Below are positions 3,208 to 40,103 of a stretch of DNA of 64,000 nt, one piece after another. Source of the DNA: Planctomycetaceae bacterium (GTDB lineage: Bacteria > Planctomycetota > PLA2); NCBI GenBank assembly GCA_011525755.1, contig WYBS01000033.1, positions 3,691-67,690 of the forward strand, read 5' to 3'. A program made the translations under genes and the position numbers. Under the pieces are notes generated by a model, which was not told the DNA's origin, made no database searches, and saw nothing but the letters and a program-made list of their open reading frames with translations. Position 1 is the stretch's first letter. Every line of letters starts with the position of its first letter.

Positions 3208-3313
3208 ACCTGCGCGCGACACATGCGCACGCCGGTTCGCGCGCCCCGAATTTGTGACACCTCCTCCCGACTAATAGATGTGGATTTCCGCGTACATTCC
3301 CCCGAGGCCTCCC

Positions 3314-4354
3314 ATGCCGCGCGCCGCTCGTCGTGACGAGGCGGGTGCGTGGCACCATGTCATGGGGCGCGGCATCGCGAAGCGCACCATCTTCGAGTGC
3401 CGCGAGGACTTCCGGTACTTCCAGTCGCTGCTCGCGCGGGTCATGCGGCGCGGGCTGCTCGAGGTTCACCTGTTCGCGCTTCTCCAGACCCACTTCCACC
3501 TGCTCGTCCGGAGCCCCGTGGGCACGCTCTCGCAGGCGATGGGGGACGTGCTTCGGCGCTACGCGCGCTGGTTCAACCGCCGCCGCGGGCGCGACGGGGC
3601 CCTCTTCAAGGAGCCGTTCAAGTCGAAGCTCGTGGACAGCGACGCCTACCGGTCCGTACTCGTGCGCTACATCGACCAGAACCCCGTGAAGGCGCGTCTG
3701 GCGTCGCGCGCGACCGGCTACCCCTACTGCAGCGCATTCCACTATGCGCGAGGCGGGGGGCCGCGCTGGCTCGAGCGCAGCTGGGTCGAGCAGGAGGTGA
3801 AGGGGGTCCGGGGGGTCGAGGCGTACGACCCGAGAGACTACGACGTGCGATTCCCCCCCAAGCTCCCGGCGCCGGTCGCGGACTGGATCGAGGACCAGCT
3901 CCTGCGGGGCCGGGACGCCGATCTCGTGGCTCCGTGCGAGGAGTCGCAGGTGGCTTGGATGGTCCGCAAGGCGCTGCTCGCGGACGGCACCGAGCCGTTC
4001 CGGCTACCGCTCCCTCCGGCGTTGGTCCAGGAGGAGTGGGAGCGTCTGCGGGCGCAAGAGGCGGAGTGGCCCGTGCGCGCCTCCCGACAGCCCGAGGGGC
4101 TCTGGTCCGCGCTTCACGCCGGCCTCCTGCGGCGCGCGTGCGGGCTATCGCTCCGGGAGATACGAGCGCGGACGGGCGAGGCGCTCTCGACCATCGCGAG
4201 CCGGGTCAGCCGCCACGACGCCTGCGTGCGGGAGTCCGACGAATACGCGCGCCGCGCGGCGCAGGTTGTCGTGTGCGTCCAGCGACGCCTGACCCGCGAG
4301 TCCCATCCGCATCGGTTCCTGCCGTCCGACGCGGACTCGGCCCTGACGGGCTGA
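3314..4354 (+). CDS. IS200-like / REP-associated tyrosine (Y1, HUH) transposase with about 190-aa C-terminal extension carrying an HTH-like segment
   Basis: HVMGRGIAKRTIF...LLEVHLFALLQTHFHLLVRSP contains the HuH motif, and RYIDQNPVKARL carries the catalytic Tyr region. This matches PF01797/COG1943. The C-terminal GLSLREIRARTGEALSTIASRVSRH resembles a sigma70-r4/LuxR-type HTH. ATG at 3314, or the frame could open at 3278. Confidence 0.7.
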   Translation: MPRAARRDEAGAWHHVMGRGIAKRTIFECREDFRYFQSLLARVMRRGLLEVHLFALLQTHFHLLVRSPVGTLSQAMGDVLRRYARWFNRRRGRDGALFKEPFKSKLVDSDAYRSVLVRYIDQNPVKARLASRATGYPYCSAFHYARGGGPRWLERSWVEQEVKGVRGVEAYDPRDYDVRFPPKLPAPVADWIEDQLLRGRDADLVAPCEESQVAWMVRKALLADGTEPFRLPLPPALVQEEWERLRAQEAEWPVRASRQPEGLWSALHAGLLRRACGLSLREIRARTGEALSTIASRVSRHDACVRESDEYARRAAQVVVCVQRRLTRESHPHRFLPSDADSALTG

Positions 4355-4421: not shown

Positions 4422-5486
4422 TCACTCCTGCACGAAGCGGCCGAAGCGGGCCTTGTCGCTCGCCTTCCGGTAGGCCTCCTCGCCCGAGATCATGCCCTCG
4501 CTCGCGAGGCGGAAGAGCGAGTCGTCCATCCGGTGCATGCCCTCGGCCCTGCCGGCCTGCAGCATCGACTCGATCTTGTGCGCCGCGCCCTCGCGGATCA
4601 CGCTCTTCAATGCCGTGGACGTGAAGAGCAGCTCGGTCGCGGGGATGCGCCCCTCGACGTCCGAGCGCCGGCAGAGGATCTGCGACAGCACGCCCTGGAG
4701 CGACTCCGCGAGCATCGAGCGGATCTGGAGCTGCTGCTCCTCCGGGAAGACCTCGACGATCCGGTCGATCGTCCGGCCCGCGCTGTTCGTGTGGAGCGTG
4801 CTGAAGACGAGCATGCCCATCTCGGCGAGCGTCAGCGCGGAGTGGATCGTCTCCCTGTCGCGCATCTCGCCGACGAGGAGGAGGTCGGGGTCCTGGCGCG
4901 CCGCGGACTTGAGCGCCGCCGCGAACGAGTCCGTGTCGCGGCCGACCTCGCGCTGCGTGAAGGTGGACTCGACGTCGATGTGCATGTACTCGATCGGGTC
5001 CTCGATCGTCACGATGTGCCGCTTCTCGCGCAGGTTGATCATCGCGAGGAGCGCGGCGAGCGTGCTGCTCTTGCCGCTGCCCGTCGGGCCGGTGACGAGC
5101 ACGAGCCCGCTCTGCACGTCCGCGAAGCGCGCGACCTCGGGCGGCAGGCTCAGCTCCTCGAGCGTCGGGATGCGCCGCGGGATCAGCCGGAACACGGCGC
5201 CGATCCCGCCCTGGTGGCGGAAGACGTTCACGCGGAAGCGCCCCGCCCCCTCGACCGCGTACGCGAGGTCGGTCTCGCCGAACCGCTCGAAGATCCCCCT
5301 GTGCCGCTCGTCGAGGACCGGCGCGATGAGCTTCTCGACCGGCGCCGTGGGCACGTCGAGCGGCTCGAGCGCGCCGTGGACGCGGACCTTCGGCGGGAGG
5401 CCGTCGAGGAGGTGCAGGTCGGAGCCCGACCTCTCGACCACCTGCCGGAGCAGGTCGTCCACGTGCGGCTTCGTGCTACCCGGCAT
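4422..5486 (-). CDS. pilT: Type IV pilus retraction ATPase PilT
   Basis: ASDLHL, Walker A GPTGSGKSST, Walker B DLLLVGEMRD, TLHTNSA. 354 aa, ATG at 5486. Confidence 0.9.
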   Translation of the reverse strand: MPGSTKPHVDDLLRQVVERSGSDLHLLDGLPPKVRVHGALEPLDVPTAPVEKLIAPVLDERHRGIFERFGETDLAYAVEGAGRFRVNVFRHQGGIGAVFRLIPRRIPTLEELSLPPEVARFADVQSGLVLVTGPTGSGKSSTLAALLAMINLREKRHIVTIEDPIEYMHIDVESTFTQREVGRDTDSFAAALKSAARQDPDLLLVGEMRDRETIHSALTLAEMGMLVFSTLHTNSAGRTIDRIVEVFPEEQQLQIRSMLAESLQGVLSQILCRRSDVEGRIPATELLFTSTALKSVIREGAAHKIESMLQAGRAEGMHRMDDSLFRLASEGMISGEEAYRKASDKARFGRFVQE

Positions 5487-6519
5487 CCTCGAACCTCTTC
5501 CGGTTTTTCGCGTGGCGCGCGGCCGTGGCGCGGTCGATGAGGCCCTCCGCGACCATCTCCTGGAGCCTCGCGTCGAGGTCGATCATCCCCTGGCGGCGGC
5601 CTGTCTGGAGCTGCGAGGCGATCTGGTGCGTGCGGCCGTCCCGGATGACGTGCGCGACCGCGGGGGTCACCTGCAGGATCTCGTACGCGGGCACGCGCCG
5701 GCCGCCGCCGAGCCGCGGCAGCAGGCGCTGCGAGATCACCGTGCGGAGCGACGCCGCGATCATCGTGCGGATCTGCTCCTGCTCGGCGGGGGGGAAGACG
5801 TCGATGAGCCGGCTCACGGTCGAGGCGGCGTCGCGCGTGTGCAGCGTGCCGAGGACGAGGTGGCCGGTCTCGGCGGCGACGACCGCGGTGCGGATCGTCT
5901 CGACGTCGCGCAGCTCGGAGACGAGGATCACGTTCGGGTCCTCGCGCAGCGCGGCGCGGAGCGCGCGCGAGAAGGAGCGCGTGTGCGGCCCGACCTGCCG
6001 CTGCGTCACGTTGCACCCCTCGCTCGGGAACACGAACTCGATCGGGTCCTCGATCGTGACGATGTGCTCCTTGCGCGAGCGGTTCACCTGCTGGAGCAGC
6101 GCCGCGAGCGTGCAGGTCTTGCCGCAGCCGGCCGGCCCCGTCGCGAGCACCATCCCCGTGCGGAACCACGTCGCCTCGTTCAAGGACTCCGGGAGACCGA
6201 GTTCCGCGAGCGGCTGGACCGCGACCGGGATGCACTTGATCGCGAGCGCCGCGCCGCGCGCGTGGCGGTGCAGGTTGACGCGGAAGCGGCCGAGATCCCC
6301 CGTCTCGAAGCAGAAGTCCACGTCGCTCCCGGGCGCGACGCCTCCGCGTTTCGCGCACGCGGCGCCGAGCGCGTCCGCCTCCTGCGTGTCGATCTCCTCC
6401 CGCGGGAGCCGCGCGATCTCGCCCTCGACGCGCACGTAGGGGACGGCGCCCGCGGAGATGTGGAGGTCCGACGCGCCGCGCCGCCGCGCCTCCGCGAGGA
6501 ACTCCTCGAGCGTGGTCAA
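5476..6519 (-). CDS. PilT/PilU-family hexameric ATPase paralogue
   Basis: ASDLHISAG, Walker A GPAGCGKTCT, ILVSELRD, TLHTRDA. Uses a TTG start at 6519 (ccccattgaccacg). Overlaps pilT by 11 nt. Confidence 0.85.
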   Translation of the reverse strand: MTTLEEFLAEARRRGASDLHISAGAVPYVRVEGEIARLPREEIDTQEADALGAACAKRGGVAPGSDVDFCFETGDLGRFRVNLHRHARGAALAIKCIPVAVQPLAELGLPESLNEATWFRTGMVLATGPAGCGKTCTLAALLQQVNRSRKEHIVTIEDPIEFVFPSEGCNVTQRQVGPHTRSFSRALRAALREDPNVILVSELRDVETIRTAVVAAETGHLVLGTLHTRDAASTVSRLIDVFPPAEQEQIRTMIAASLRTVISQRLLPRLGGGRRVPAYEILQVTPAVAHVIRDGRTHQIASQLQTGRRQGMIDLDARLQEMVAEGLIDRATAARHAKNRKRFEDAG

Positions 6520-6541
6520 TGGGGGGGCTCCGGGGGCGCGC

Positions 6542-6979
6542 TCAGCCTTTCAACCACTCGATCTTCCCGCCCGGCAGGAAGTAGATCATGAACATCGCGC
6601 CGCCAAGGACGTTCGCGGGGTGGGTCGTGCCCGGCGGGTAGACGATCCAGCCCGGCGGGTCGCCGTCGAAGGTCGGCGAGCCCTCGTAGGCGAAGCAGAA
6701 GTTGATCTCGCCCGCGGGGTGCGTGTGGCGCATCCCCTTGCCGCGGGAGAGGACGCAGTCGACCGAGAAGCCGCTGCGGTCCTTCGCGAGGCGGCCGAAG
6801 CGCGTCGATCCCGCCTCCTTCGGGCAGAGAGCGTCGGCGTGCTCCCGGCAGAGTTCCCGGAGCTCGGGCAGGTCGCCGAAGCGCGCTGCGAGGGAGCGCT
6901 CGGTCGCCGCCTTGTCGGCGAGGTCGCAGGTCCTCAGGTGGTCGAGGACCGGGTCGAGGTGCTTCCAGATCGCGTCCAT
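6542..6979 (-). CDS. Conserved hypothetical protein (DUF4863-like), about 145 aa
   Basis: ATG at 6979 is preceded by GAAGGAGG 10 nt upstream. Contains HTHPAGEINFCFAYEGSPTFDGDPPGWIVYPPGTTH. The family assignment is from memory and is tentative. Confidence 0.45.
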   Translation of the reverse strand: MDAIWKHLDPVLDHLRTCDLADKAATERSLAARFGDLPELRELCREHADALCPKEAGSTRFGRLAKDRSGFSVDCVLSRGKGMRHTHPAGEINFCFAYEGSPTFDGDPPGWIVYPPGTTHPANVLGGAMFMIYFLPGGKIEWLKG

Positions 6980-7002
6980 CGCTCCGCCGCCTCCTTCAAG
7001 CT

Positions 7003-7923
7003 TCACTCCACCGTGAAGGGCAGCTCGTTCGACTCGCCGTCGTCGAGCAGCTCGAAGATGTCCGTGCCGGGGTCCGTGTAGGGATCGACGACGGCGTAGG
7101 CCACGATCACGTCGCCGACGAGCGGGAAGTTGACGGTGCGGATGTTGAAGACCCGCGTTCCCCTCCGGTCGTTGATGCGCGGGATTGCGTCCTCCGAGAT
7201 GAGGATGCCCGCGACCGTGCAGACGGTCTCCACGGGGCCGCGCGACGGCGCGACGTAGAAGACCTGGGTGTCGGTCGGCTGCGGGAGCGGAGCGCCCGCG
7301 CCGTCGACGGGCAGGAAGGGCACGAGCCCGACCGCCGCGTCGGGGCCGACCGCGACGTGGAGGAGCCCCGGCACGGCGCCCGTGGGCACCGTGGCGGTGA
7401 TCGTCGTGTCGGTCGAGGAGACCACGGCCCCCTCCACCCCCCCGAAGAAGACGCGCAGGGCGCCCGCCGCGAAGCCGCTGCCGCCGATCGTCACCGTGGC
7501 GCCCTCCTGCGCGGTATCGGGCGTCACGCTCGCGAGCGTGGGCCCGGTGTAGGGCAGCGCCTCGTAGGTCGCGGTGTCGAGCACGTCGCCGCCCGTCTGG
7601 AGGTAGACCTCCGCGAGCTGCGGCACGCCGAGGGGCGGCGGGTCGAGCGTGAGGACCGCATACTCGCCGCCGATGGTCATGTCGGCCGTGCGGTCGACGC
7701 CGTTGACGACGAGGCGGAGGACGGTCGTCGGGTCGAAGTCCAGGGAGTCCGACGCCATCTTCACCGCGATCTGGAGCGCGGGCCCGTCGGAGACGACGAC
7801 CTGCCCGTCGCCGCGTTCGCCTTGGACCGCGAACCGCTCGGGCCGCACGAAGTCGAACTCCGGGCTGCAGGCGGGAAGGAGGAGGAGCGCGAGGAGGAGG
7901 GAGGATCGCCGCACGCGGGACAT
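7003..7923 (-). CDS. IPT/TIG-domain lipoprotein
   Basis: ATG at 7923 gives MSRVRRSSLLLALLLLPACSPEF (lipobox). TIG-like segment ASVTPDTAQEGATVTIGGSGFAAG...TTITATVP. Its ATG overlaps the TAA of the upstream permease (TAATG). Confidence 0.6.
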   Translation of the reverse strand: MSRVRRSSLLLALLLLPACSPEFDFVRPERFAVQGERGDGQVVVSDGPALQIAVKMASDSLDFDPTTVLRLVVNGVDRTADMTIGGEYAVLTLDPPPLGVPQLAEVYLQTGGDVLDTATYEALPYTGPTLASVTPDTAQEGATVTIGGSGFAAGALRVFFGGVEGAVVSSTDTTITATVPTGAVPGLLHVAVGPDAAVGLVPFLPVDGAGAPLPQPTDTQVFYVAPSRGPVETVCTVAGILISEDAIPRINDRRGTRVFNIRTVNFPLVGDVIVAYAVVDPYTDPGTDIFELLDDGESNELPFTVE

Positions 7924-9374
7924 TATTGCCGCAGTTTCGGGTCGAGGGCGTCTCGGAGCCCCTCGCCGACGAGATTGAGGATCGTGACCGTGAAGAAGAT
8001 CGCGAAGCCGGGCCCGTGGATGAGCCAGTGCTCCTTGGTCTGCCGCCCCTGCAGCAGCACCTGCCCCCAGGAGGGCACGTTGGGGTCGCCGAGACCGAGG
8101 AAGGCGAGGCCCGACTCCAGGAGGATCGCGGACGCCACGCCGAACGTCGCGGTCACGAAGATCGGGTGGATCGCGTTCGGCAGGATGTGCTTGAAGACGA
8201 TCCTCCGCTGCGGGATGCCGAGCGCGCGCGCCGCGAATACGTAGTCGAGGCCGCGCTCGGACAGGAACTGGCCGCGGATGAGGCGTGCCGCGCCCGTCCA
8301 CCCGATGATCCCGATCGCGAACATGATCATGAAGATGTTCTTCTTCCCGGTGACCGCGACGAGGATCAGGATGAAGGCGAAGCTCGGGAAGCAGAGCATG
8401 ATCTCGACGAGGCGCATGCCGAGGATATCGACCCAGCGGCCGAAGTACCCCATGAGCGAGCCGAGGATCGTCCCGATCGTGCAGTAGATCGAGACCGCGA
8501 CGACGCCGATCGTCAGCGACACGCGCGTCCCGTAGAGGAGCATCGCGAAGACGTCGCGGCCGTTGCGGTCCGTGCCGAGAGGGTGCCACGTCCCCCAGCC
8601 GCCCTTGAGCGTCGGCGCCTCGACGATGCGCTCCTCGTCGTTGTCGTCGTGGTGATAGCCGAAGGGGGGGAGCGCCATCGTGTAGCCGAGGGCCGGGTCC
8701 TCCTGCATCTCGAGCGCCCGTGCGCGCCGCTCCTTCCACTTGGCGATCTCGCGTTCCGCGGTGTCGGCGCGCTCGCGTGCGGCGAGGCGGTCCGCCTCCG
8801 CGTTCGACCGCGCGGACCCCGCGAGGGCTCCCTCGCCGAGGCGCGCCTCCACGCCCGCGATCACGCCCTGCGCCTCCCGCAGCTTCCTCTCGAAGCTTCG
8901 GAGCTTCACGTCGGAAAGGACGACGTCGAGATCGGGCGCACGGATGGCGAGGTAATCGATCTTCGGCCGCGAATAGTGGAAGGGGCCGGAGGGGAGCAGG
9001 ATGAGCATGTAGACGGCGACGAGCGCCGCCGCGCCGACCGTGACCATCGTGCGCCGCTGCCGGCCCCGCGTGGAGCGCCAGAGGAGGAGGCCGGGAACCA
9101 GCGCTACGAGCAGGAGGTTGAAGAAGAGGTCGACGCCGCTCGGGAACCGGTTCTGGTCGAAGAGATCCGAGAACCACGGGAAGCGCGGCGTGCGGGCCGC
9201 CTCGGGATGGCCCTCGGGCAGCGAGATGTAGAAGGGCGAGCTCGTGCAGAAGACCGGCGCGAGGATCGCGAGGACGAAGAGGACCGCGAGCATCCGCAGG
9301 CCCCAGACGGCCATGCGGTTCTTCGCGAACTGGGTCCGGACGATGTCCCAGTAGGTCTTTTCCGGGGCGATCAC
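7923..9374 (-). CDS. ABC transporter permease, OppC/DppC family, with about 180-aa insertion (2 extra TM helices + coiled coil)
   Basis: GTG start overlaps the upstream stop (GTGA) at 9374. Conserved HPLGTDRNGRDVFAMLLYGTRVSL and the C-terminal EAA-loop region are present. The insert VDLFFNLLLVALVPGLLLW...KLRSFERKLREAQ...EREIAKWKERRARALE lies between TM1 and the conserved core. Confidence 0.85.
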   Translation of the reverse strand: MIAPEKTYWDIVRTQFAKNRMAVWGLRMLAVLFVLAILAPVFCTSSPFYISLPEGHPEAARTPRFPWFSDLFDQNRFPSGVDLFFNLLLVALVPGLLLWRSTRGRQRRTMVTVGAAALVAVYMLILLPSGPFHYSRPKIDYLAIRAPDLDVVLSDVKLRSFERKLREAQGVIAGVEARLGEGALAGSARSNAEADRLAARERADTAEREIAKWKERRARALEMQEDPALGYTMALPPFGYHHDDNDEERIVEAPTLKGGWGTWHPLGTDRNGRDVFAMLLYGTRVSLTIGVVAVSIYCTIGTILGSLMGYFGRWVDILGMRLVEIMLCFPSFAFILILVAVTGKKNIFMIMFAIGIIGWTGAARLIRGQFLSERGLDYVFAARALGIPQRRIVFKHILPNAIHPIFVTATFGVASAILLESGLAFLGLGDPNVPSWGQVLLQGRQTKEHWLIHGPGFAIFFTVTILNLVGEGLRDALDPKLRQ

Positions 9375-11149
9375 GAGAAGCTGATCCTCGGGTCGACGAC
9401 CGCGTAGAGGAGATCCGAGAGCAGGATGCCGAGCATCGTGAGCACGGCCACGATGAGGTCGACCCCCACGATCACGTTGTAGTCCCGGGCGCCGATCGAC
9501 TCGATCGTCAGGAGGCCGAAACCCGGGATGGAGAAGATCCACTCGATGACGAAGCTGCCGCCGACGATCACCGGGAGCGTCGTGCCGAGCAGCGTGATGA
9601 TCGGGATGATGCCGTTCCGCGCCGCGTGCTTCACGGTGACCGCGAATTCGCCGACGCCCTTGGCGCGCGCCGTGCGGACGTAGTCGCTCCGGATCACGTG
9701 GAGGACGCCTGTTTTCGCGTAGCGGCTGAGCGCGGCGAACGAGGCGTAGGTCATGCAGAAGATGGGGGCGAGGACGTGCCACGCGATGTCCTTGACCCAC
9801 TCCCACGACGGAAGCGACCACGCCTCGAGGCTCTCGAACCGGTCGGGCGGGATGATCCCGAGGGAGCCGGGCTGGCCTTCCGCGAGGTAGCGCACGGCGA
9901 GCGTCGCGACGTAGAAGGACGGCAGCGAGTAGAGCGCGAAGAGGACGAAGCTGATGCCGCGCTCGGTCCGCGAGCCGTGGATCTTCGCGCTCGTGATGCC
10001 GAGGGGTACGGAGATGAGGTAGGCGAGGACGAGGGACGAGAGCGCGAGGGTGAGGCTGTATTTGAGACGCTCGAAGACGAGCGTCATCACCGGGACCTTG
10101 TGGACAAGGGAGTTCCCGAAATCGAAGCGCAGGAGGTTCCCCCAATAGGTGGCGAACTGCGTCTCGAGGAGGAGGACGCGCAGCCACCGGAGGCCGCCGT
10201 AGTCCCAGCGCGACTTCGCGCCCTCCCACCAGGTGCGGAAGGCAGCGGCGCCGCCCTCCTTCGTGAGAGGCGGGTCGGCGGGCGCCCACGCCAGGCGATC
10301 CAGGATCGTGTTCCGGAGCCGTGCGACCTCGCGTTGCGCCTCGTCGCCCTCCTCGGGGAGCCGCGCCGCCTTCGCGAACCACCGCACCGCGGCGTCGCGG
10401 ATCGCCTCGTCCTCGCCCAGGACGAGCGCGGCGAGCGCGGATGCCGCCGCGGCACCCAGCCGGTCCAGGGCCGCGCCGTCATTCGCGAGCAGCGCCTGCC
10501 GGACGGCGCCCTCGTCGGCGCCGGGCGGGTACTCCCGGCCCGCGCCGTCGTACCACGTGCGGACCGCCGCGATGCCCGCCCGCCTGCGCGCCTCGCTCGC
10601 GTCCGCCGGCCAGCCGCAGATCTCGAGGATCGCGTTCTCGCGCACGATCTCCGCGTTCTTCCGGGCGCGTGCCGGCCGGACCTTTCCCTCCTCCTCGCCC
10701 ACGGCGACGCGCTGCGCGCTCCGCACGAGCCATCCCATGGCCTGGTCGCGGAGGGGACCCTCCGTGTCGGCGACGATCGCGAGGAACGCCGGCGTCGCGT
10801 ACTCGCCCCACTTGATGAGCTGCTCCTGCGCCTCGCTCCGGACCTTGATCTCGCGCGACCGCTCGAGATCGACCGCGTCCTCGAGCGTGCGCCGGACCTC
10901 GTCGACGGGCAGGTCGTAGCAGGTATTGAGGATCGTCGGCTTGTCGAGCCCGTACTGGGCCCGGAAGACCTTGACCGCGCTCGGCACGCCGCCCGCCTGC
11001 TCCCGCGCGGTGCCGCCCTCGGCGGAAGTCGGCACCTGCTGCACGATGGGCGGCTCGGGCGCACCCGCCACCACGACCCAGACGACCAGGGAGACCCCGA
11101 AGAACGTCGGGATCATGAGGAGGAGCCGCTTGAGGAGATAGGTCCTCAC
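9371..11149 (-). CDS. ABC transporter permease, OppB/DppB family, with about 330-aa alpha-helical insertion after TM1
   Basis: GTG at 11149 overlaps the solute-binding-protein stop (GTGA). N-terminus VRTYLLKRLLLMIPTFFGVSL. Conserved TQFATYWGNLLRFDFGNS...IESIGARDYNVIVG. 592 aa, versus about 310 aa for a typical OppB. Confidence 0.85.
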   Translation of the reverse strand: MRTYLLKRLLLMIPTFFGVSLVVWVVVAGAPEPPIVQQVPTSAEGGTAREQAGGVPSAVKVFRAQYGLDKPTILNTCYDLPVDEVRRTLEDAVDLERSREIKVRSEAQEQLIKWGEYATPAFLAIVADTEGPLRDQAMGWLVRSAQRVAVGEEEGKVRPARARKNAEIVRENAILEICGWPADASEARRRAGIAAVRTWYDGAGREYPPGADEGAVRQALLANDGAALDRLGAAAASALAALVLGEDEAIRDAAVRWFAKAARLPEEGDEAQREVARLRNTILDRLAWAPADPPLTKEGGAAAFRTWWEGAKSRWDYGGLRWLRVLLLETQFATYWGNLLRFDFGNSLVHKVPVMTLVFERLKYSLTLALSSLVLAYLISVPLGITSAKIHGSRTERGISFVLFALYSLPSFYVATLAVRYLAEGQPGSLGIIPPDRFESLEAWSLPSWEWVKDIAWHVLAPIFCMTYASFAALSRYAKTGVLHVIRSDYVRTARAKGVGEFAVTVKHAARNGIIPIITLLGTTLPVIVGGSFVIEWIFSIPGFGLLTIESIGARDYNVIVGVDLIVAVLTMLGILLSDLLYAVVDPRISFS

Positions 11150-13260
11150 GGGCGCTTCTTCCAGCGGAACATGAGCCGTCGATCGAGCTGGGGGACCGGC
11201 AGCCGCGGCTCCGGGATGCGCCAATCCGCGTTCACGAAGATGGGCGAGACGATCGAGAAGATCCAGGTGTAGGGCTGCTCGTCGAACTCGATCTCGTACC
11301 ACTCGTGGAAGAGGGCCTTCCGGCGGTCCAGATCGAAGGTCGTGATCAGCTCGTCGAAGATCTGGTCGGCGCGCTGGCTGCGGAACCCGGGGTAGTTGTT
11401 GGACGAGGAGTCGTCCGCGCGCTTCGATTCCCAGAGCTGGCGCGGATCGTTGTCGAGGCTCGCCGTCCAGAAGATGATGAATCCGTCGAACGTCCGCTCG
11501 TGGATCGCCTTCGACCAGAGCGCGGACTCCGCGGGCAGCGCCTTGGCGCGGACTCCGCACTTGAGGAGATCCTCCCGGTACATGCGGACGATCGCGTCCT
11601 GGTCGGGCGAGGAGGCGGAGATGAGCAGCTCGAACTCGAAGTCGAGCTTCTTCCCGTCGACCACCTTCTCGCGGACCCCGTCCCCGTCGCCGTCCTTCCA
11701 GCCCGCCTCCTCGAGGAGTCGCTTCGCCTCCTCGATGTCGAAAGGCAGCGCCTTCAGCCCGGGATGGCTGTAGGGGCTGTAGACCGACTCGCCGACGGCG
11801 AGCAGCTCGCCGAGGCCGTAGAAGATGTTGTCGATCACGGCGCCGCGGTTGAGCGCGAGCGTCAGCGCCCTCCGCACGCGCTTGTCGGCGAAGAGCGGCT
11901 TGCGCATGTTCCAGCCGAAGCCGCCGTAGGTGGGACGCCTCCAGAGAAAGTACGTGTAATCCCAGGAGGCGGGGGAGGGCTTGCTGAACGGATCGAACTT
12001 GTAGACCTGGGCAGAGGCATCCCCCTCGAGGATGTACTTCCGGTACTGCTCCGGGTTCGGGATCACGACGACCATGTCCTTGTTCCAGAACCGCGCAAGG
12101 CGGGTCTCGTCGTCCCGGACGATGTGCATGTAGTAGTCCTTGCTGGGGAACCGGTCGCCGTAGTAGCTCTCGTTGCGCTCGCAACGCACGTACTCGCCGC
12201 GCTTGTACTCGACGAACCGCAAGGGCCCGGTGCCGCACATGCTCTTGCCGAACCAGTGCTTGCCGAACTGCGCGCCTACGTCCGCGTCGCTGTAGCGGAC
12301 CCCGTTCGGGTCGCTTCCCCAGATGTGCTCCGGGATCGGCTGGATCTCCATCGTGATCGCGCGGGCATAGAAGTTCGGCCGCTTCCAGACGACCTCGATC
12401 GCGAGCTCGTCCTTCACCGTGATGCTCTCGAGCTCGTCGAAGAGGTAGGCGAGCGGCGACCCCGCGTTGGGATCGCGCAGGATGTCGACCGAGAACTTCA
12501 CGTCCTGCGCCGTCAGGAACCGCGGCTCGGCGAGCCACGGGTGCTCCGCCAGCATCGCGGGCTCCGGGTCGTGCCAGCGGACCCCTTTCCTCAGATAGAT
12601 CATGTAGCGGCAGTGGTCGGGGCTCTCCTCGATCCGCTCGGCGAGGAGCGCGTTCCACTCGTTGTAGTCGGAGGTCTTCCGCTCCGATAGCGAGTCGAGG
12701 ATGTAGACGGAGAGACCGACGACCGTCGTCGTGCGATCCGTGCTGAACGGGTTCCACCCCTTCGGCTCCCCGGGCGTGTAGTCGTGGAGCGTCGCGCCCC
12801 AGTCGATCTGGTCGGCCGGGGGGAGCGCGCGCTTCGGGTCCTCGTTCGCCGACCTGTCGCACAGGACGGTCCAGCCGGGGTTGTAGGGATAGATGGTCTT
12901 CCCCGCGATCGTCGAGGGCTTGCTCGTCCGGTCCTCGCGCCGCGCGGTACCCTCCCCCGCGCCCCCTCCCGTCTCCCTCGGCCCGGCCCCGACCGCCCCC
13001 TTCGCGGCGAGATCGACCAGCGTGTCGACATGCTGCCTCGTCGCCTCGGCAGCCTCGCGCGTGGCGCGCAGCTCGTTCATCGCGCTGTCGAGCTTGCGGC
13101 CCTGCTCCGCGACCTGGCCGACGAGGTCGTCGACCTTCTCGCGCGTCTTCACGAACTTCACCTCTACCGACTGGTTCTGGACGAAGGTGAGGCCGAGCGC
13201 GATCGTGAAGGCGGCGATCACGATGATCTTCAGCGCCTGGAGCACGAAGTTCTGCTGCAT
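11146..13260 (-). CDS. Family-5 (peptide/nickel) ABC substrate-binding protein with N-terminal TM anchor and coiled-coil linker
   Basis: ATG at 13260 gives MQQNFVLQALKIIVIAAFTIALGLTFV (TM). A coiled-coil stretch LVGQVAEQGRKLDSAMNELRATREAAEATRQHVDTL follows, then an SBP_bac_5-like body to 11146. Confidence 0.85.
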   Translation of the reverse strand: MQQNFVLQALKIIVIAAFTIALGLTFVQNQSVEVKFVKTREKVDDLVGQVAEQGRKLDSAMNELRATREAAEATRQHVDTLVDLAAKGAVGAGPRETGGGAGEGTARREDRTSKPSTIAGKTIYPYNPGWTVLCDRSANEDPKRALPPADQIDWGATLHDYTPGEPKGWNPFSTDRTTTVVGLSVYILDSLSERKTSDYNEWNALLAERIEESPDHCRYMIYLRKGVRWHDPEPAMLAEHPWLAEPRFLTAQDVKFSVDILRDPNAGSPLAYLFDELESITVKDELAIEVVWKRPNFYARAITMEIQPIPEHIWGSDPNGVRYSDADVGAQFGKHWFGKSMCGTGPLRFVEYKRGEYVRCERNESYYGDRFPSKDYYMHIVRDDETRLARFWNKDMVVVIPNPEQYRKYILEGDASAQVYKFDPFSKPSPASWDYTYFLWRRPTYGGFGWNMRKPLFADKRVRRALTLALNRGAVIDNIFYGLGELLAVGESVYSPYSHPGLKALPFDIEEAKRLLEEAGWKDGDGDGVREKVVDGKKLDFEFELLISASSPDQDAIVRMYREDLLKCGVRAKALPAESALWSKAIHERTFDGFIIFWTASLDNDPRQLWESKRADDSSSNNYPGFRSQRADQIFDELITTFDLDRRKALFHEWYEIEFDEQPYTWIFSIVSPIFVNADWRIPEPRLPVPQLDRRLMFRWKKRP

Positions 13261-13338
13261 CGAGGCCCACGGTACCCCGGTCTTCGAACCCCCGTCAAGG
13301 CAACGCGGTTTGTGCGCCTTTGCGGTAGATTCCGCGGC

Positions 13339-15105: not shown

Positions 15106-16305
15106 CTAGTACCCGAGGTCCTTGCGGAAGTCGCGCATGGACGCCTGGCGGCGCTCGGGGTCCTTGTCGAGCGCCTTCGCCAGCGCCGCGCTCAACTTCT
15201 CCGGGATCTCGGGGCGGATCTCGCGCGCCAAGGGCGGCTGCTGCGACTGCACGGCCACGAGCCAGTCGTTCAGCCGCTTCGCCTCGATCGGATGACGGCC
15301 CGTGATCATCCGGTAGATCGTCGCGGCCGTCGAGTAGATGTCCGCCCTGAACGTCGCCTGCCCGCCGCCGAGCAGCTCCGGCGCCATGAAGAGCGGCGTC
15401 CCCGGCGTCCCCGTGCTCGTCTGCTGCGTGAACGCCGCATCGACGAGCCGCTTCGCGAGTCCGAAGTCCACGACCTTCACGCCGCCGTCGTCGGAAACGA
15501 GGATGTTCCCGGGCTTCACGTCGCGGTGCAGCACCTTCCGCTCGTGCGCGTACTCGAGCGCCGAGAGCACCTGCTTCGCGATCCCCTGCGCCTCGCTCCA
15601 CGGCAGGAACTGCCGTTCCTCGAGGATCTCGCGCAGGCTCTTCGACGGGAAGTACTCGAGGATCAGGAACCAGTGGCCCGCCTCGTGGCCCGAGTCGCCG
15701 AACCGCACGATGTTCTCGTGCTCGAGGCCCGCGGTCGCGTACGCCTCCTTCAGGAACTTCAAGACGACGTTCGGCTCCTCCGTGAACTCGACGTGCAGCA
15801 CCTTGAGCGCGACGTACGGGTTGCCGCGCCGGTGGCCGAGGTAGACCGAGCCGAAGGAGCCGGTCCCGAGCCCCTTCACGAGCCTCCGCTGGGCGAGCGT
15901 CGAGCCGAGGAGGGGGAACGCCCTCCGGCACTCGGTGCAGAAGGGGGCTTCGGGGGCGGCGGCGACGAGCGTGCGCAGGCACGAGCAGCAGCGGTACGCC
16001 TCGTCCTTCCCGGTGAACGCGAACTCCGCGTGGCCGATCCGCAGGTGGTCGCCGCGCGCGAGCTTCATCTCCCCCTTCACCTGAACGCCGTTCACCCACG
16101 TGCCGTTCTTGCTGTCGAGGTCCCGGAGGTACCACTCGCCGCTCCGGCAGTAGACGACCGCGTGCCGCCGCGAGCAGCGCGGGTCGGCGATCTTGATCCC
16201 CGTGCCGCCGGGGTCGCGGCCGAGCCCGAGCTCCTCGTTTGGCGGCAGGAGCACGAGCGGCGCGCCCGCGAGCCCGTGCAGGGGGAGCAGCCCGACGTCG
16301 CTCAC
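15106..16305 (-). CDS. FHA-domain Ser/Thr protein kinase
   Basis: GTG start at 16305. FHA region LGRDPGGTGIKIADPRCSRRHAVVY...GTWVNG. Kinase motifs HRDVKPGNILV, DFGLAK and APE. Confidence 0.85.
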   Translation of the reverse strand: MSDVGLLPLHGLAGAPLVLLPPNEELGLGRDPGGTGIKIADPRCSRRHAVVYCRSGEWYLRDLDSKNGTWVNGVQVKGEMKLARGDHLRIGHAEFAFTGKDEAYRCCSCLRTLVAAAPEAPFCTECRRAFPLLGSTLAQRRLVKGLGTGSFGSVYLGHRRGNPYVALKVLHVEFTEEPNVVLKFLKEAYATAGLEHENIVRFGDSGHEAGHWFLILEYFPSKSLREILEERQFLPWSEAQGIAKQVLSALEYAHERKVLHRDVKPGNILVSDDGGVKVVDFGLAKRLVDAAFTQQTSTGTPGTPLFMAPELLGGGQATFRADIYSTAATIYRMITGRHPIEAKRLNDWLVAVQSQQPPLAREIRPEIPEKLSAALAKALDKDPERRQASMRDFRKDLGY

Positions 16306-16348
16306 GGGCGGAACCCCGCCACGGCCGGCCGGGAGGGCGCGCGCGCCG

Positions 16349-17623
16349 TCACTTCTGGACCCGCTTCTTGCTCACCGGCGACGGGAGGACGAACTGCCCC
16401 GCCTCGGTGAACGTGGGTTTCGGGTAGCGCATGCGCGCGCGGTCGATCATCCGCTTCACGTCGCGGATGGCCGCGGGCCGCATCTCGGGCTGCGGCTGGA
16501 GGCAGGCCTGCACGATCTCGTCGAGCTCCGGGATCCCGCGCGCCTTCAGCTTCTCCGCGACCGACGGCATCGGCCCCTCGAGCTTCTTCTGCTGGATCTC
16601 GAGCGTGCTCGTGCCGCGGAACGGGTGCGTCCCCGTGAGCATGAAGTAGAGCGAGCCGCCGAGGCCGTAGATGTCGACCGCCGCGGCCATCGGATCCTGC
16701 CCGGGCCGCGGCTGCACCTGCTCCGGCGCGCAGAAGATGATCGTGCCCGCGGGCGCGCTCGCGAGGCCGCCCCCCTCCGTGAGCGCGAGGCTGAAGTCGA
16801 TGAGCACCGTGCGGTACGTCTTCTCCTCGACCATGACGTTGCTCGGCTTCACGTCGCGGTGGACCATGCCGCGCTTGTGGACGGCATCGAGCGCCGCGCA
16901 CATGTCGGCCCCGACCTGGAGCGCCTCGGGCACCCAGAGCCGGCCCGCCTTGCCGAGCTGCGTCGCGGTGAGCCCGTCCACGTAGTCCATGACGAGGAAG
17001 GACTCGCCGTTCTTCATCCGCCCGGTCGAGAGGATCCGGACGATGTTGTCGTGGTGGATCTGGGAGAGCGACTTCGCCTCCTCGACCGCCCGCGCGACGT
17101 TCGCCTCGGTCGCCCGGTCGGGCCTGAGGATCTTGAACGCGACCTTCGTCCCGCGATTCACGTCGCGCGCCTCGAAGAGAAGTCCCATGCCCGAGACGGC
17201 GACAAGCTTCGTGAGCGAGAACCCGAGATCCATCGCGGGGTCGGCGAACTGGATCCCCTCGGGCCCGAGGTCCTTGGTCGTGGTGTCGTTGACCTCCCCG
17301 CCCGGAAGGGGCCCGGCGAGGGGGCCGGCGGCCCGGCGCACGGTGACGACCGTCCGCCCCATCTTGACCTCGTCGCCGTCCGAGAGCTTCTGGTCCCCGA
17401 GGATCCGCTCCCCGTTCACGAAGATCCCGTTCCGGGCGCCTATGTCCTCGACGAAGAGGTCGCCGGCCCGCTCCAGGAACCGGCCGTGCTCGCGGGAGCA
17501 GTAGTCGTCCGGGAGCCGGACGGATGCGGTGGGGCCCCGGCCAAGGACGAGGGGCGCCTCGCCCACCGGAACCTCGCGTCGCAGGTTGCCGGAGCTCACG
17601 ACGAGGACGTACTTATGTGCCAT
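16349..17623 (-). CDS. FHA-domain Ser/Thr protein kinase (DFG to DFS variant)
   Basis: FHA region VLGRGPTASVRLPDDYCSREHGRF...GIFVNG. Kinase motifs VAFKIL, HRDVKPSNVMV and DFSLAL in place of DFG, plus FCAPE. Confidence 0.85.
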   Translation of the reverse strand: MAHKYVLVVSSGNLRREVPVGEAPLVLGRGPTASVRLPDDYCSREHGRFLERAGDLFVEDIGARNGIFVNGERILGDQKLSDGDEVKMGRTVVTVRRAAGPLAGPLPGGEVNDTTTKDLGPEGIQFADPAMDLGFSLTKLVAVSGMGLLFEARDVNRGTKVAFKILRPDRATEANVARAVEEAKSLSQIHHDNIVRILSTGRMKNGESFLVMDYVDGLTATQLGKAGRLWVPEALQVGADMCAALDAVHKRGMVHRDVKPSNVMVEEKTYRTVLIDFSLALTEGGGLASAPAGTIIFCAPEQVQPRPGQDPMAAAVDIYGLGGSLYFMLTGTHPFRGTSTLEIQQKKLEGPMPSVAEKLKARGIPELDEIVQACLQPQPEMRPAAIRDVKRMIDRARMRYPKPTFTEAGQFVLPSPVSKKRVQK

Positions 17624-17790
17624 CGGGCGCCTGGAGGATTATAGGAACGGCAGGGACCCGCCCCAACCTTGAGCCCGGCTTCGGCCGCCGCGAGGGGGGA
17701 AGGGAGGGTGCACGCGGGAGGGAGGGGGGCGCCCCGCCCCGAAGTTGATAGAGTGTCGGCCCGGCCCCGGGCCGGAGGAGAAAGCCGTCC

Positions 17791-18969
17791 TTGATCTTCT
17801 CGGGTGAAATCTGCGTCTACTGCGGCCGTCCGATCACCCTGGACGACGCCAACCCGCAGGTGGCGCGGTGCCGCAAATGCTCCGCGCCGCACCACACGCA
17901 GTGCTGGTTCGCGAGCAACGAGAAGTGCACGGTCGCGGGATGCGACGGCAAGGCGAGCGACATCGGCCCGCCGAAACTCAAGGAGCCGGTCGGCGAGATC
18001 TGCCCCTTCCTCCCCCCGGAGACCCCCCGCAAGGAAGGCGTCGACGCGGTCCCCGCGAAGTGCCTCCGCAGCCGCTGCATGCTCTACGACGGGATCGAGA
18101 AGCGCTGCGCGGTCGGCGAGATCGCCTACGTCCTCGCGACCGTCCGCCAGTCCGGCCGCGAGACGCGCCACCTCCTCAACCAGGCCGTCGGCAGCTCGAG
18201 CAAGCAGACGGTCCAGCTCCTCACGGGCCTCTCCCAGAGCTTCCGGAACTCGGAGGGGAGCCTGAAGGCGCTCCTTCCCCCGCAGGAGCGGAACACGAAG
18301 ACGCTCGAGGCCTCGGTCCTCGTGCTCGGCGAGATCAAGGCGGCGATCGAGGCGCTCTCCGGCGACCAGCAGGCGGCGGCCGAGGGTTTCGACCGGCTCG
18401 CGCGCGCGGTCGAGGCCTCGGGCACGGGGGAGCAGGTGCGCGGCCGCCGCGAGGCGCGCCTCGCCGCGCGCGCGGCACTTCGTGACGGCCGCCCGGGCGC
18501 CGCCGTGAGCCTGCTGCTCCAGGCGCAGAAGCGCGCCCCCGACGACGCGGTCGCGAACGACCTCGCCACGGCCTACGTCGCGGCGGGGCGCCTGAAGGAG
18601 GCGATCGAGCTGCTCGAGAAGGTGCTCGCCGAGAGCCCCGATTACACGCCCTGCCGGATCACGCTCGCGTCGCTGAAGCTCAGGGGGGGAGAGCCGCAGG
18701 CCGCGGAGGAGCTCCTCCGCGACGCCCCCCAGCCCCCCGACTCCATGCTCCGGGCGGAGCTCGCATACGCGAAGGCGTGCGCGGCCTACGCGGTCGGCCG
18801 CTCCGAGGACGCCGTCGATCTCCTGAACAAGGCGCTCGATGAGGACCCGTGGCACACGGCCGCCGCCGCCGCGCTCCTCGACCTGCGGGCGCGCCGCACC
18901 GGCACGCCGGTCCCCGAGGCCGCGACGCTCGCGCTCGAGGCCGCGGGCGTGGAGGCGCGGCATGGCTAG
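17791..18969 (+). CDS. Zinc-ribbon + TPR-repeat protein
   Basis: TTG start at 17791 with GGAGGAG 10 nt upstream. CVYCGRP...CRKCSAPHHTQCW Cys cluster. C-terminal TPR-like helices. Confidence 0.7.
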   Translation: MIFSGEICVYCGRPITLDDANPQVARCRKCSAPHHTQCWFASNEKCTVAGCDGKASDIGPPKLKEPVGEICPFLPPETPRKEGVDAVPAKCLRSRCMLYDGIEKRCAVGEIAYVLATVRQSGRETRHLLNQAVGSSSKQTVQLLTGLSQSFRNSEGSLKALLPPQERNTKTLEASVLVLGEIKAAIEALSGDQQAAAEGFDRLARAVEASGTGEQVRGRREARLAARAALRDGRPGAAVSLLLQAQKRAPDDAVANDLATAYVAAGRLKEAIELLEKVLAESPDYTPCRITLASLKLRGGEPQAAEELLRDAPQPPDSMLRAELAYAKACAAYAVGRSEDAVDLLNKALDEDPWHTAAAAALLDLRARRTGTPVPEAATLALEAAGVEARHG

Positions 18970-21900
18970 GACGCTCACGCAGTGGACGGGCGAGATCCGC
19001 GAGTACGTCCAGAAGGGCAAGCTCAAGGCGGCGCGGAAGACCCTCGAGAAGGCCCAGAAGTCGGGGGTCGCGGGGGGGCTGCTCGAGGAGGCGTCGCTCG
19101 AGTTGCTGCTCGCGGAAGGCGGCGGCGCCGCGGCCGCCGAGAAGCTCCGCACCATCGCGAGGGGCGAGGGCCGGCCCGCCGCCGCCGTGAAGCTCTCCGA
19201 GGTGCACCTGAAAGCGACGCCGGACGACCACGCGGTCCGCGACGCGCTGTGGGAGATCTGCCTCGGCATGGACGCCCCGGCCGCCGCCGTGCCGCACCTC
19301 GCCGAGCTGGTCGCGGCGGGCGCGATCGACGGCGCCGCGCGCGCGAAGGACATGCTCGCGCGGAAGGATGTCGCGGGCGCCACGGGCCTCTTCCTTCTCG
19401 CGACGCTCGGCGTCGTGAAGACGGACCGGATGAAGCTCGTGGATCGCCTGCTCGCCTCCCCGCAGGGCGCGCCGCTCCTCGCCGGCACGACGCAGGCGCT
19501 CCTCGATGCCGGCAAGGCGGACGGTCCCGTCCACTACGCGCTCGCGCAGATCGCGCAGAAGGAGGGGGACCGCGAGCGCTTCCTCGAGTTCGCGGGGAAG
19601 GCGTTCGGCGAGAACCCCGAGGAGGTGTGGACGTGGACGTCGGAGGGCGTCGCCGCGCGCGACCGACTCGAGATCGCGCTCCACAACGACTCGCTGCGGC
19701 ACCTCCTGCAGGCGGCGAAGGCGGCCCAGCCCGACGAGATCGTCGAGGTCGCGAAGCGCAGCGGGAGCGAGGGAACCTCGGCGAAGGTGCTGCGCGGCCT
19801 CGCGCTGCTGCTCACGGACAAGGCGCCCAACGCGTGCCGGATCCTCGAGGGCGTGGTCCAGGAGCAGTCCGCCGCGGCCACGCCCGTCGCGACGCTGCTC
19901 GCCGAGAAGACGCCCTCGTGGCGGGGCGCCGCCGAGGTCCGGGCCGCGGTCGTCGCGACCGCGCTCCGCGAGAGCGTCGCGGACGTCGCGGGCGCGATCG
20001 ACGGCCTCCTCGCCGTGCCCCTCGCGCAGCGCGCCGAGGCGTGGGGCCGCGCCGCGCCCCGCCTCCTCGACCGCGCGCCCGACCGCGACGACCTGCGGCG
20101 CGAGCTCGGCTTCTACCTGCTGAAGCAGGGCGACATCGACGCCGCGGCGGCGCTGCTCGATGCGGCGTCTCACCTCGACGCCGCGCGGGCATGGGCCGAG
20201 GCGGGGCTTGCGAAGGGGCCGGTGCTCCTCGCGGCCGCCCGGCTCGCGGAGTCGGAGGGCGCGCTCGCGGAGCACGCGGAGTGGCTGCTCCGAGCGAGCC
20301 GGGAGGATCCGTCGCTCCTCTCCGAGATCGGCAAGATCGTCTCCGCGGGCACCGTGACGCCCGAGACCGCGCTCGACGGCGCCGGCGCGCTCCTCAGGGA
20401 GGGCCAGAAGGAGGATGCCGCGGGACTCCTCGCGCGGCTCCCGCTCGACCCGGCGACGGGCCGGCGCGTCGACGACTTCCTCGCCGCCGAGCGGCTCCAC
20501 GACGACCGCGCGTTCCTCCCGGTGGCCTTCCGCTGCGCGCTCGCGCTCGGCGACGCGCCGCGCGCGCGCCGGCTCTTCCGGACCGTGTCGACGAACATGC
20601 AGCTTCTCGCGCGCGAGGCGAGCCGGCACGCCGACGCGGGGCGGGTGCTCGCCGACGTGCTCATCGCCCACGAGAAGGGCGAGGTGGCCGCGACGATCCT
20701 CGAGGCGCGGCGCGAGGCGGGCGACGAGGCGCGCGTCCTGCTGCCCCTCGCGGACGCGCTGCTCAAGGCGTCGCCGCGGCTTGCGATGGGGCGGCTCCTG
20801 CGCGGCCGCCTGCTCATGGCGCTCGGGCGGCACGCCGACGCCGTGCGCGACCTGCGCGCGATCCCCCCGAACGCGGCCGAGGTGGACGAGGCGTTCCGCC
20901 TGCTCGGCGATGCGACGAAGACCGATTCCGCGGCCGACGCGGCTCTCGGCCGCGCGGACATGCACTTCGCGCGTAAGGAGTACAAGAAGGCGGTCCAGGA
21001 GCTGATGGGCTCCGGGGCGCCGGCGCAGGAGCGCCTCGACCGGTTCACGGCGATCTGCCGGGAGAAGGGCGACCTCGAGGCGGCGCACAAGGGGCGAGCG
21101 ATCGCGCTGCTCGACCTCGGCCGCGTGCCGGACGCCGCCGACGCGCACCTGAAGCGGTTCAGCTGTCCCGACGCCGACCGCGCGCAGGTGGCGGCGGACC
21201 TCGAGGACGTCGCGGCGGCGGGGCTCAAGACGGGGGATCTCGCGACATCCGCGTCCGTCCTCGGCCAGCTCCCGGACCAGGTGAGCGACGGCGCCGAGCG
21301 CTCGATCCGCGTCATCGGCGCCGACCGGCGACCGCAGATGCTCGTCCTCCGCTCCCAGCTCCTCCTCCAGCTCCAGCGGACGAGCGAGGCGGTCTCGACG
21401 CTCGTCGACCTCGTCAAGACCGACGCGAACGCGCGCCCGCAGGCGGCGCAGGCGCTCGAGGCGATCGTGGACTCGGGGCAGGCGCGCCCCGAGGCGGACC
21501 TCGCGCTCGCGCAGGCGTTCGACGCGATGGACAGGACGCCCGACGCCCTGCGCGCGCTGAAGCGGCTCTACGAGGACGACATCACCGGCCGCGAGACGGT
21601 CGTCCAGGCGGCCGAGCGGCTCGTCGTCAAGGGCGACGACCCGCAGGTGCGCCTCTTCCTCGCGGGCGTCTGCCTCGACATGCGGAACCCCCTCGGGGCG
21701 ACGCAGCACGCGATCTATGCGCGGCGGCTCCAGCCCGCGTCGCGGCGCGACTGCGTGGAGCTGCTGCGCCGCGCGCTCGACCTCGACGCGTTCGCGCCCG
21801 ACACGCACTTCGCGCTGGCGGAGGCGCACCTCGCGGGGGACGAGGCGGACGACGCCGTCCGCCACTTCCGCGCCGCCGTCGAGGTGGACCGCGAGCGCGC

Positions 21901-32428: not shown

Positions 32429-32435
32429 GGGAGCA

Positions 32436-36325: not shown

Positions 36326-36346
36326 CGGCCGCCCCCCGACCCCCTG

Positions 36347-37987: not shown

Positions 37988-38239
37988 AGGGCCTCCGTGG
38001 CAGGCGGAGCCCGCGGCGCCGCGCGCGGCGGGGCTCCTGCCGTCCCGGATCGAGACACCCTATTCGCATGCCGGATACGCCGGCACCGCGCTACCTTAGC
38101 ACGACCCCGGCGAGCCGACGCCGCGGCGCGGAGGACGGCGTCTCATGACGAGGCGATCGCGCCGCCGAAGCGCCTTCCATCGGGACTTCTAAAGGTCCTC
38201 GACGCGAAAAGACGAAACGCAAGGGGAACCATGAGCGGC

Positions 38240-40087: not shown

Positions 40088-40103
40088 GGGGGCTCCGGGG
40101 GCC

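Follow-up and report, generated by a model that had tools for sequence, protein, structure and literature searches.

A probable planctomycete operon joins an Opp/Dpp-type permease cluster with large predicted periplasmic extensions to a tandem PilT pair

Introduction

ATP-binding cassette (ABC) importers of the Opp/Dpp type (PepT family) are recognized by a solute-binding protein (SBP), two permeases with EAA loops and two ATPases of the OppD/OppF type; in ABC importers, the nucleotide-binding domains dock onto the EAA loop. ATPases that are shared, or encoded away from the importer genes, are also established, e.g., MsiK of Streptomyces and MsmK of streptococci. Type IVa pilus loci, such as that of Pseudomonas aeruginosa, carry pilT and pilU in tandem. 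Here, we analyzed a locus in which genes of both kinds stand together within 64,000 nt of DNA (contig WYBS01000033.1; ~70% G+C; hereafter the window) from an uncultured bacterium, planctomycete by the source names that its homologues carry. Genes for an SBP, an OppB-like and an OppC-like permease (the Opp triad) are followed on the minus strand by those for a lipoprotein with an IPT/TIG domain, a PnbB-like protein and two PilT-family ATPases (PilT1 and PilT2).

An initial annotation of this stretch had called the association of PilT with an Opp-type importer undescribed, and no paper on such a link was found in the literature. In Sulfolobus solfataricus, the bindosome (Bas) requires a type IV pilus-like ATPase for ABC binding-protein function and comprises the assembly ATPase BasE, the PilC-like platform BasF and binding proteins whose signal peptides are of the prepilin type (PMC3047682). 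Besides Bas, no other described pilus-type ATPase serving ABC binding proteins was found in the literature.

We favor, with moderate confidence, the view that the planctomycete operon holds two ordinary modules, probably co-transcribed, and does not encode one machine, with the ABC ATPases probably encoded elsewhere. The first module (SBP, OppB-like and OppC-like proteins) would be the membrane half of an Opp/Dpp (PepT-family) importer that reaches far into the periplasm and is driven by OppD/OppF-type ABC ATPases from elsewhere in the genome. The second would consist of a lipoprotein with three Ig-like domains, an optional PnbB-like protein and the tandem type IVa pilus retraction ATPases PilT1 and PilT2; it would serve a pilus machinery, presumably without physical coupling to the importer, and its envelope lipoprotein would be lineage-specific.

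Results

Seven genes are packed into one probable operon

Gene calls together with Pfam and NCBIfam searches placed seven minus-strand genes at 4422-13260 and upheld the domain identities assigned to them in the initial annotation. In the order of transcription, these encode the SBP (11146-13260, 704 aa; Pfam SBP_bac_5), the OppB-like permease (9371-11149, 592 aa, GTG start; BPD_transp_1), the OppC-like permease (7923-9374, 483 aa, GTG start; OppC_N and BPD_transp_1), the TIG lipoprotein (7003-7923, 306 aa; IPT/TIG domain), the PnbB/DUF4863-like protein (6542-7006 or 6542-6979, 145-154 aa; PF16155), PilT1 (5476-6519, 347 aa, TTG start; TIGR01420) and PilT2 (4422-5486, 354 aa; TIGR01420). Reading the junctions from the sequence confirmed the close packing described before: GTGA overlaps join SBP to OppB (11146-11149) and OppB to OppC (9371-9374), a TAATG overlap (7921-7925) joins OppC to the TIG lipoprotein, 22 nt separate the PnbB-like gene from the TTG start of PilT1, and PilT1 and PilT2 overlap by 11 nt. 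The proposed upper limit of 22 nt for intergenic gaps holds at these junctions. Between the TIG and PnbB-like genes, a start at the GTG of 7006 would give a further GTGA overlap, and one at the ATG of 6979 a gap of 23 nt, which exceeds the limit.

Three terminator-like sites were found, compared with 2.8 expected from shuffling, and all lie within coding sequence. A consensus scan gave no sigma-70-like promoter match. Scans for promoters and terminators of this kind are uninformative for a high-GC phylum. The operon promoter may lie in the 78 nt (13261-13338) that separate the divergently oriented SBP and thiI genes, and the seven genes are probably co-transcribed.

The permeases retain EAA loops and belong to an undescribed Opp/Dpp subfamily

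The SBP matched Pfam SBP_bac_5 at 2.9e-61 (208 bits, cut-off 32) and is a cluster-C (family 5) protein. The OppB-like permease matched BPD_transp_1 at 6.4e-33 and the OppC-like permease matched OppC_N and BPD_transp_1; their best NCBIfam models, Opp4B and Opp4C (284 bits), respectively, both scored under the equivalog cut-off. Using Foldseek, the OppB membrane domain was matched to DppB/OppB of E. coli and M. tuberculosis (E 3e-8 to 2e-5). Of the features that define the PepT family, the SBP, the two permeases and the EAA loops are present, and adjacent OppD/OppF genes, a feature of linkage only, are absent.

The EAA coupling loops of OppB (IRSDYVRTARAKG...RNGIIP; residues 485-516, nt 9602-9697, minus strand; alignment A1) and OppC (residues 375-404, nt 8163-8252, minus strand; alignment A3) follow the same patterns in PilT-linked and oppDF-linked homologues (OppB, IRSDY[VI]RTARAKG..KH..RNGI[IL]P; OppC, DY..AA.ALG....I.F.HIL.N...P), and they are kept in all three Opp subgroups found at this locus. 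Such strict conservation argues that the permeases still use ABC ATPases and, as both loops are intact, we infer that the importer module is driven by a remotely encoded OppD/OppF pair.

In relatives of the same architecture, canonical oppD-oppF genes (ABC_tran with oligo_HPY) directly follow OppC. These oppDF-linked relatives (L007, Eremiobacterota; L008; L010 and L011, Myxococcales; L012, Bradymonadales; L017, Sedimentisphaerales) have in common with the window an anchored and stalked SBP, the first part (~170 aa) of an insert in OppB and two extra helices in OppC. As the additions occur beside canonical oppDF, they are traits of a subfamily and not adaptations to PilT. The SBP-OppB-OppC triad represents an undescribed, widespread subfamily of Opp/Dpp-type ABC importers, with members in Planctomycetota, Verrucomicrobiota, Bacteroidota, Myxococcota, Bdellovibrionota-type and Eremiobacterota genomes.

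The earlier claim that no ABC nucleotide-binding gene is present proved correct: searches of the called genes for Walker A, LSGGQ and Pfam ABC_tran found no ABC ATPase in the operon or in the 64-kb window. Among the called genes of the window, Walker A motifs occur in the two PilT genes alone, and no LSGGQ stands in an ABC context. A background sample was drawn with EAA and third transmembrane helix (TM3) patterns derived from OppB (diverse bacteria, one genome per species, 80 loci fetched among the matches listed, no close relatives). Where at least 5 kb were available on each side, 50 of 64 Opp-type loci had oppD/F nearby and 14 of 64 lacked oppDF within ~9 kb; among the matches listed, none of the 80 fetched loci contained a PilT gene. 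An Opp triad standing alone was also found in a planctomycete (L006). Opp triads without adjacent ATPase genes are a minority pattern and not rare, and the ABC ATPases of the present triad are probably encoded elsewhere in the genome.

These results bear on the idea that a PilT1/PilT2 hexamer replaces the ABC ATPases and drives or gates OppB-OppC. The PilT genes do sit where relatives hold oppDF, 64 kb contain no ABC ATPase, and both PilT paralogues carry conserved atypical motifs. However, the EAA loops are conserved residue for residue, there is no new cytoplasmic domain for a hexamer to bind, the PilT pair exists elsewhere without Opp genes, the permease and PilT genes are set apart by a lipoprotein gene and, in some loci, also by a PnbB gene, and ATPase-less Opp loci are common. 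We consider such a replacement extremely improbable.

The additions to the importer are predicted to be periplasmic

Hydropathy and AlphaFold2 placed the end of the first transmembrane (TM) helix of the OppB-like protein at ~residue 29 and the start of the next TM helix at ~354, leaving a gap of ~325 residues. The domain inserted between TM1 and TM2 (residues ~30-353, nt 10091-11062, minus strand) was modeled as all-helical with a predicted local distance difference test score (pLDDT) of ~85-94 (AlphaFold2 with 21 homologues). The net gain over canonical OppB is ~260 aa, and not the ~330 aa described initially. For the insert, which resembles a helical repeat, Foldseek yielded only non-significant armadillo/HEAT-like matches and no matching solved structure. 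Among 1.8 billion representative proteins searched, 33 matches to the insert were found, all at the same position of OppB-like proteins, and the OppB search returned ~36 proteins of 576-599 aa together with many more of 470-499 aa with a shorter insert.

In the OppC-like protein, hydropathy identified extra TM helices at residues 80-98 and 109-127 (80-127, nt 8994-9137, minus strand), which are invariant, with their VDLFFNL motif, throughout alignment A3, including the oppDF-linked L007 and L008. An Ala/Glu/Arg-rich stretch, predicted to be periplasmic, is found at residues 140-236 (nt 8667-8957, minus strand), and this helical region of ~90 aa is present in the window, L003, L004 and L005 of the same alignment, which does not contain L094. 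The two extra hydrophobic helices of the initial annotation were thus recovered; the coiled coil that it had placed in OppC stays unsupported, as a periodicity test detected no heptad periodicity at 140-236. From hydropathy and the canonical membrane topology of OppB and OppC, the inserts of both permeases are predicted to be periplasmic, and the sole cytoplasmic addition would be the ~10-residue loop between the extra OppC helices. With this topology, a cytoplasmic ATPase such as PilT could not reach the inserts, which would rule them out as its docking sites.

The SBP carries a sole, N-terminal TM helix by hydropathy (residues 9-27, nt 13180-13236), followed by an amphipathic helical stalk (residues ~28-88, nt 12997-13179), a low-complexity linker and the SBP_bac_5 domain (residues 204-614, nt 11419-12651; all minus strand). 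The stalk has a significant 3.5-residue hydrophobic periodicity that is matched by 2 per 1000 shuffles, in agreement with the tethering by a TM helix and coiled coil first proposed from the sequence, and both anchor and helix are common to the oppDF-linked relatives. Among solved structures, AppA of B. subtilis is the closest relative, with DppA and NikA also near. No prepilin motif was found in the SBP: its N-terminus (MQQNFVLQALKIIV) has neither Gly at -1 nor Glu at +5, and the same was observed in eight relatives.

A triad that combines very large predicted periplasmic additions and a tethered SBP with the lack of adjacent ATPase genes might no longer transport, and act instead as an ATPase-free, periplasm-spanning sensor or scaffold, e.g., by signaling the presence of substrate to the pilus system. 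Fast evolution of the SBP would fit this idea (29-70% identity among linked loci vs 65-88% for PilT). Nevertheless, the conservation of the membrane domains and EAA loops equals that seen in oppDF-linked transporters, and Pfam and NCBIfam revealed no signaling domain in any of the three proteins, which makes a sensor highly unlikely.

PilT1 and PilT2 form a conserved pair that also occurs without Opp genes

Both ATPases scored above the TIGR01420 (PilT/PilU) cut-off of 319 (PilT1, 385 bits; PilT2, 411 bits), align end to end with P. aeruginosa PilT (3jvu) and, among solved structures, are closer to PilT than to PilU. These scores and the sequence itself support the earlier assignment of two PilT/PilU-type hexameric ATPases, one with a TTG start and the Walker A motif GPAGCGKTCT. 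This motif belongs to PilT1 (GPAGCGKT at nt 6115-6138, minus strand), in which Walker A, Asp box, Walker B (DPNVILVSELRD) and His box (AETGHLVLGTLHT) are all present and the His box is intact. PilT2 has a canonical Walker A (GPTGSGKSST; nt 5067-5090, minus strand) and a canonical Walker B, and the first His of its His box is replaced (AEMGMLVFSTLHT). The paralogue motifs were compared in the window, L003-L005, L089-L091, L094, L104 and L105. PilT1 orthologues share a Walker A that contains Cys (GxxGCGK[ST]), and their Walker B reads VSELRD, with Ser before Glu; the first His of the PilT2 box is lost in every orthologue examined. The counterpart of the AIRNLIRE motif reads AVAHVIRD in PilT1 and ALKSVIRE in PilT2, with the IR[DE] end alone kept. 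These shared signatures identify the pair as a conserved two-paralogue unit, and the complementary peculiarities of its members suggest, at the level of sequence, a division of labor or a mixed hexamer.

L091 and L105 carry the PilT1-PilT2 pair but neither Opp nor TIG genes. In L105 (8773-12200), the pair starts 28 nt after the thiolase gene of a beta-oxidation cluster, which demonstrates that an unrelated operon can carry it at its end. L105 and L091 (192-12192) belong to another lineage, and in this lineage the pair follows 3-hydroxyacyl-CoA dehydrogenase/enoyl-CoA hydratase and thiolase genes. None of pilB, pilC, pilMNOPQ or pilin genes was found in the 64-kb window. PilT1 and PilT2 presumably act in pilus retraction.

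The lipoprotein gene accompanies PilT and the PnbB-like gene is optional

The TIG lipoprotein has a lipobox Cys19 (nt 7867-7869) and consists of three Ig-like beta-sandwich domains (model pLDDT 93.6), the middle one of which is the IPT/TIG domain (residues 127-192). Its family comprises 69 detectable members, and a PilT gene adjoins the TIG homologue in every fetched locus that reaches downstream of the gene. The PnbB-like protein (PF16155, formerly DUF4863; 65.7 bits) lacks a signal peptide, and no solved relative of it was found. Its gene is present in the window, L003, L004, L089 and L104 and absent from L005, L090 and L093-L097, so that it is a facultative part of the operon.

The linkage is restricted to a single syntenic lineage

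The order SBP-OppB-OppC-TIG-(PnbB)-PilT1-PilT2 recurs in L003, L004, L005, L090, L094 and L104, and parts of it were found on six short metagenome contigs. In L104, the TIG and PnbB-like genes are 275 nt apart. In L089, the Opp triad lies on the opposite strand and diverges from TIG-PnbB-PilT-PilT across 95 nt, an inversion which indicates that the lipoprotein belongs with the PilT unit and that the triad need not be transcribed together with it. All eight long PilT-linked loci come from a single Planctomycetota lineage and share ~25 kb of synteny. This block comprises, upstream, both FHA kinases (the L104 flank stops short of these), DUF420 and ThiI, then the Opp triad, the TIG lipoprotein and the two PilTs and, where flanks reach, two TPR genes upstream and a PyrRedox and a transglutaminase-like gene downstream. 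Since the whole block is shared, the linkage is no better conserved than its surroundings, and the association is most simply explained by a single event in one lineage. The seven-gene arrangement of the initial annotation can accordingly be described as a conserved tight operon, but one that is restricted to this syntenic lineage.

Phylogenies of the parts differ. The flanks and PilT genes produced a star-like tree (57-76% identity), and the Opp triads fell into three groups with 100% bootstrap, i.e., group I (window, L003-L005 and L094), L089 alone, and group III (L090 and L104). The unlinked L006 triad is the sister of the inverted one in L089. This pattern indicates that the triad either evolves much faster than its surroundings or was exchanged in place like a cassette.

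Several observations weigh against two modules that merely happen to be neighbors. OppDF genes were found neither within the 64-kb window nor in the 10-kb flanks of seven relatives (L003-L005, L089, L090, L094 and L104). Within the lineage, OppC adjoins TIG in 12 loci and TIG adjoins PilT1 in 12 loci, and, in the window, L003, L004, L005 and L090, neighboring genes from OppC through PilT2 either overlap at their stop and start codons or lie no more than 37 nt apart. The flanks of L090 place it with L005 and L094, in conflict with the triad tree, and the Opp triad is nonetheless always present at this position in the lineage. Its constant presence despite apparent exchange could reflect selection for the linkage.

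The two modules may cooperate without direct energy coupling: PilT1, PilT2 and the TIG lipoprotein, located at the outer membrane or a secretin, would form a retraction unit, substrates caught by pili would be drawn up to or across the outer membrane, handed to the stalked SBP and imported, and the ABC ATPases would again be encoded elsewhere. A translationally coupled operon kept in at least 12 loci, a triad retained beside TIG-PilT despite apparent exchange and a TIG family found only with this arrangement (as judged from the fetched loci reaching downstream) are in line with this proposal. Tandem-Ig lipoproteins include the glycan-binding SGBP-B of Bacteroides, and the IPT/TIG lipoprotein GspP (DR_1364) encircles as a belt the Deinococcus radiodurans secretin (PMC10828601, 8co1). 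Furthermore, pili-like fibers of cultured planctomycetes bind dextran that is later internalized (PMC5394234). On the other hand, a linkage restricted to one syntenic lineage may have arisen once and persisted by inertia, pair and triad each occur alone elsewhere, the L089 inversion shows that a shared transcript is not required, and the TIG protein has fold matches (TM-score ~0.22) of a kind that Ig-like domains give in general. We regard this cooperation as possible, if doubtful. Going further, one trans-envelope nutrient-capture unit, in which pilus retraction and the Ig lipoprotein feed polymeric substrate to a periplasm-spanning importer, with its stalked SBP and permease extensions stretching in the direction of the outer membrane, and their adjacency is selected, would explain why the triad was kept at its position even after an exchange; we judge this unlikely.

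Surroundings of the operon

The rest of the window contains thiI, DUF420, two FHA-kinase genes, two TPR genes and a large polysaccharide-synthesis island. The two adjacent FHA-domain Ser/Thr kinase genes and the TPR genes (392 and 1238 aa; the N-terminus of the former is prokaryotic RING-like) occupy 15106-22678. The kinases are syntenic in all relatives whose flank reaches them. For the TPR genes, which lie within reach of the L003, L004 and L005 flanks alone, synteny is likewise kept in these three. Convergent to PilT2, an IS200-like Y1 transposase gene (3278-4354, plus strand; weak Pfam match, 22 bits) was found at the position where relatives carry ThiS, a BNR-repeat protein and a ~965-aa protein, indicating that the downstream flank was remodeled in the window.

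A 758-aa protein with a strong coding signal and no Pfam match is encoded at 23442-25718 (plus strand), followed by a PD40 beta-propeller protein. The polysaccharide-synthesis island (27500-59000) includes rmlC/A/B/D (29971-33266), three asparagine-synthase-like genes (34568-42080), a Wzy_C polymerase/ligase (44050-45351) and a polysaccharide deacetylase with DUF3473 (46533-47405), as well as a WecB-type 2-epimerase, several GT4 glycosyltransferases, a FemAB-like acetyltransferase, a UDP-glucose dehydrogenase and a pair of AMP-ligase and PLP-decarboxylase genes. An rve-type integrase of an insertion sequence (IS) element lies at its far end (59232-60377, minus strand). Rfam and tRNA scans of the window gave no match.

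Discussion

The initial annotation had offered two explanations for this operon, i.e., a novel envelope import, export or retraction machine or the fusion of unrelated functions. A novel machine is disfavored by inserts that occur subfamily-wide, by their predicted periplasmic topology, by the conserved EAA loops and by the separability of the modules. The joining of unrelated functions is favored by the Opp-free PilT pairs of L091 and L105, the divergent triad of L089 and the frequency of ATPase-less Opp loci in the background sample. If the operon does consist of two modules, the association with PilT would be a local quirk of gene order, and the remaining interest would lie in a widespread, uncharacterized Opp/Dpp subfamily with large periplasmic extensions. 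This periplasm-extended subfamily is the most solid new item of the present analysis, and its extensions may adapt SBP-dependent import to wide or crowded periplasms. Were the linkage functional, it would offer a genetic handle on the planctomycete uptake of fiber-caught material, a question that dates back to the observation of dextran uptake (PMC5394234).

A role as a defense system was considered and rejected, as the seven proteins gave only weak P-loop matches (at most 29 bits) in PADLOC. A bindosome-like system was likewise rejected, for lack of a prepilin motif and a platform gene and with PilB, GspE and BasE models scoring far below their cut-offs. BasE is a weak NCBIfam match of both ATPases; in contrast to Bas, the ATPases here are of the retraction type, the operon has no platform gene and the SBP carries no prepilin motif.

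Like tandem pilT-pilU loci, the operon contains two adjacent, overlapping PilT-family genes. However, both products are nearer to PilT, PilT1 has a Cys in Walker A and PilT2 a changed His box, and the pair shares its operon with an ABC-importer cluster and a lipoprotein gene, both of which precede it. Importers with shared ATPases resemble the triad in that an SBP and permease cluster lacks an ATPase gene, as do 14 of the 64 Opp-type loci, whereas the known shared ATPases MsiK and MsmK serve sugar (CUT1-type) importers.

With the Opp/Dpp importers of, e.g., E. coli (DppBCDF/OppBCDF; 8z1v, 8z21) and M. tuberculosis (OppABCD/DppABCD; 8j5q, 8wd9), the triad shares the cluster-C SBP, the permeases and the EAA loops. 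It differs from these in having no oppD/oppF beside the permeases or within 64 kb, in an SBP that is held on a TM helix and helical stalk instead of by a lipobox or free in the periplasm, in ~260 extra helical residues in the first, predicted periplasmic loop of OppB, and in an OppC that gains two TM helices and a helical stretch.

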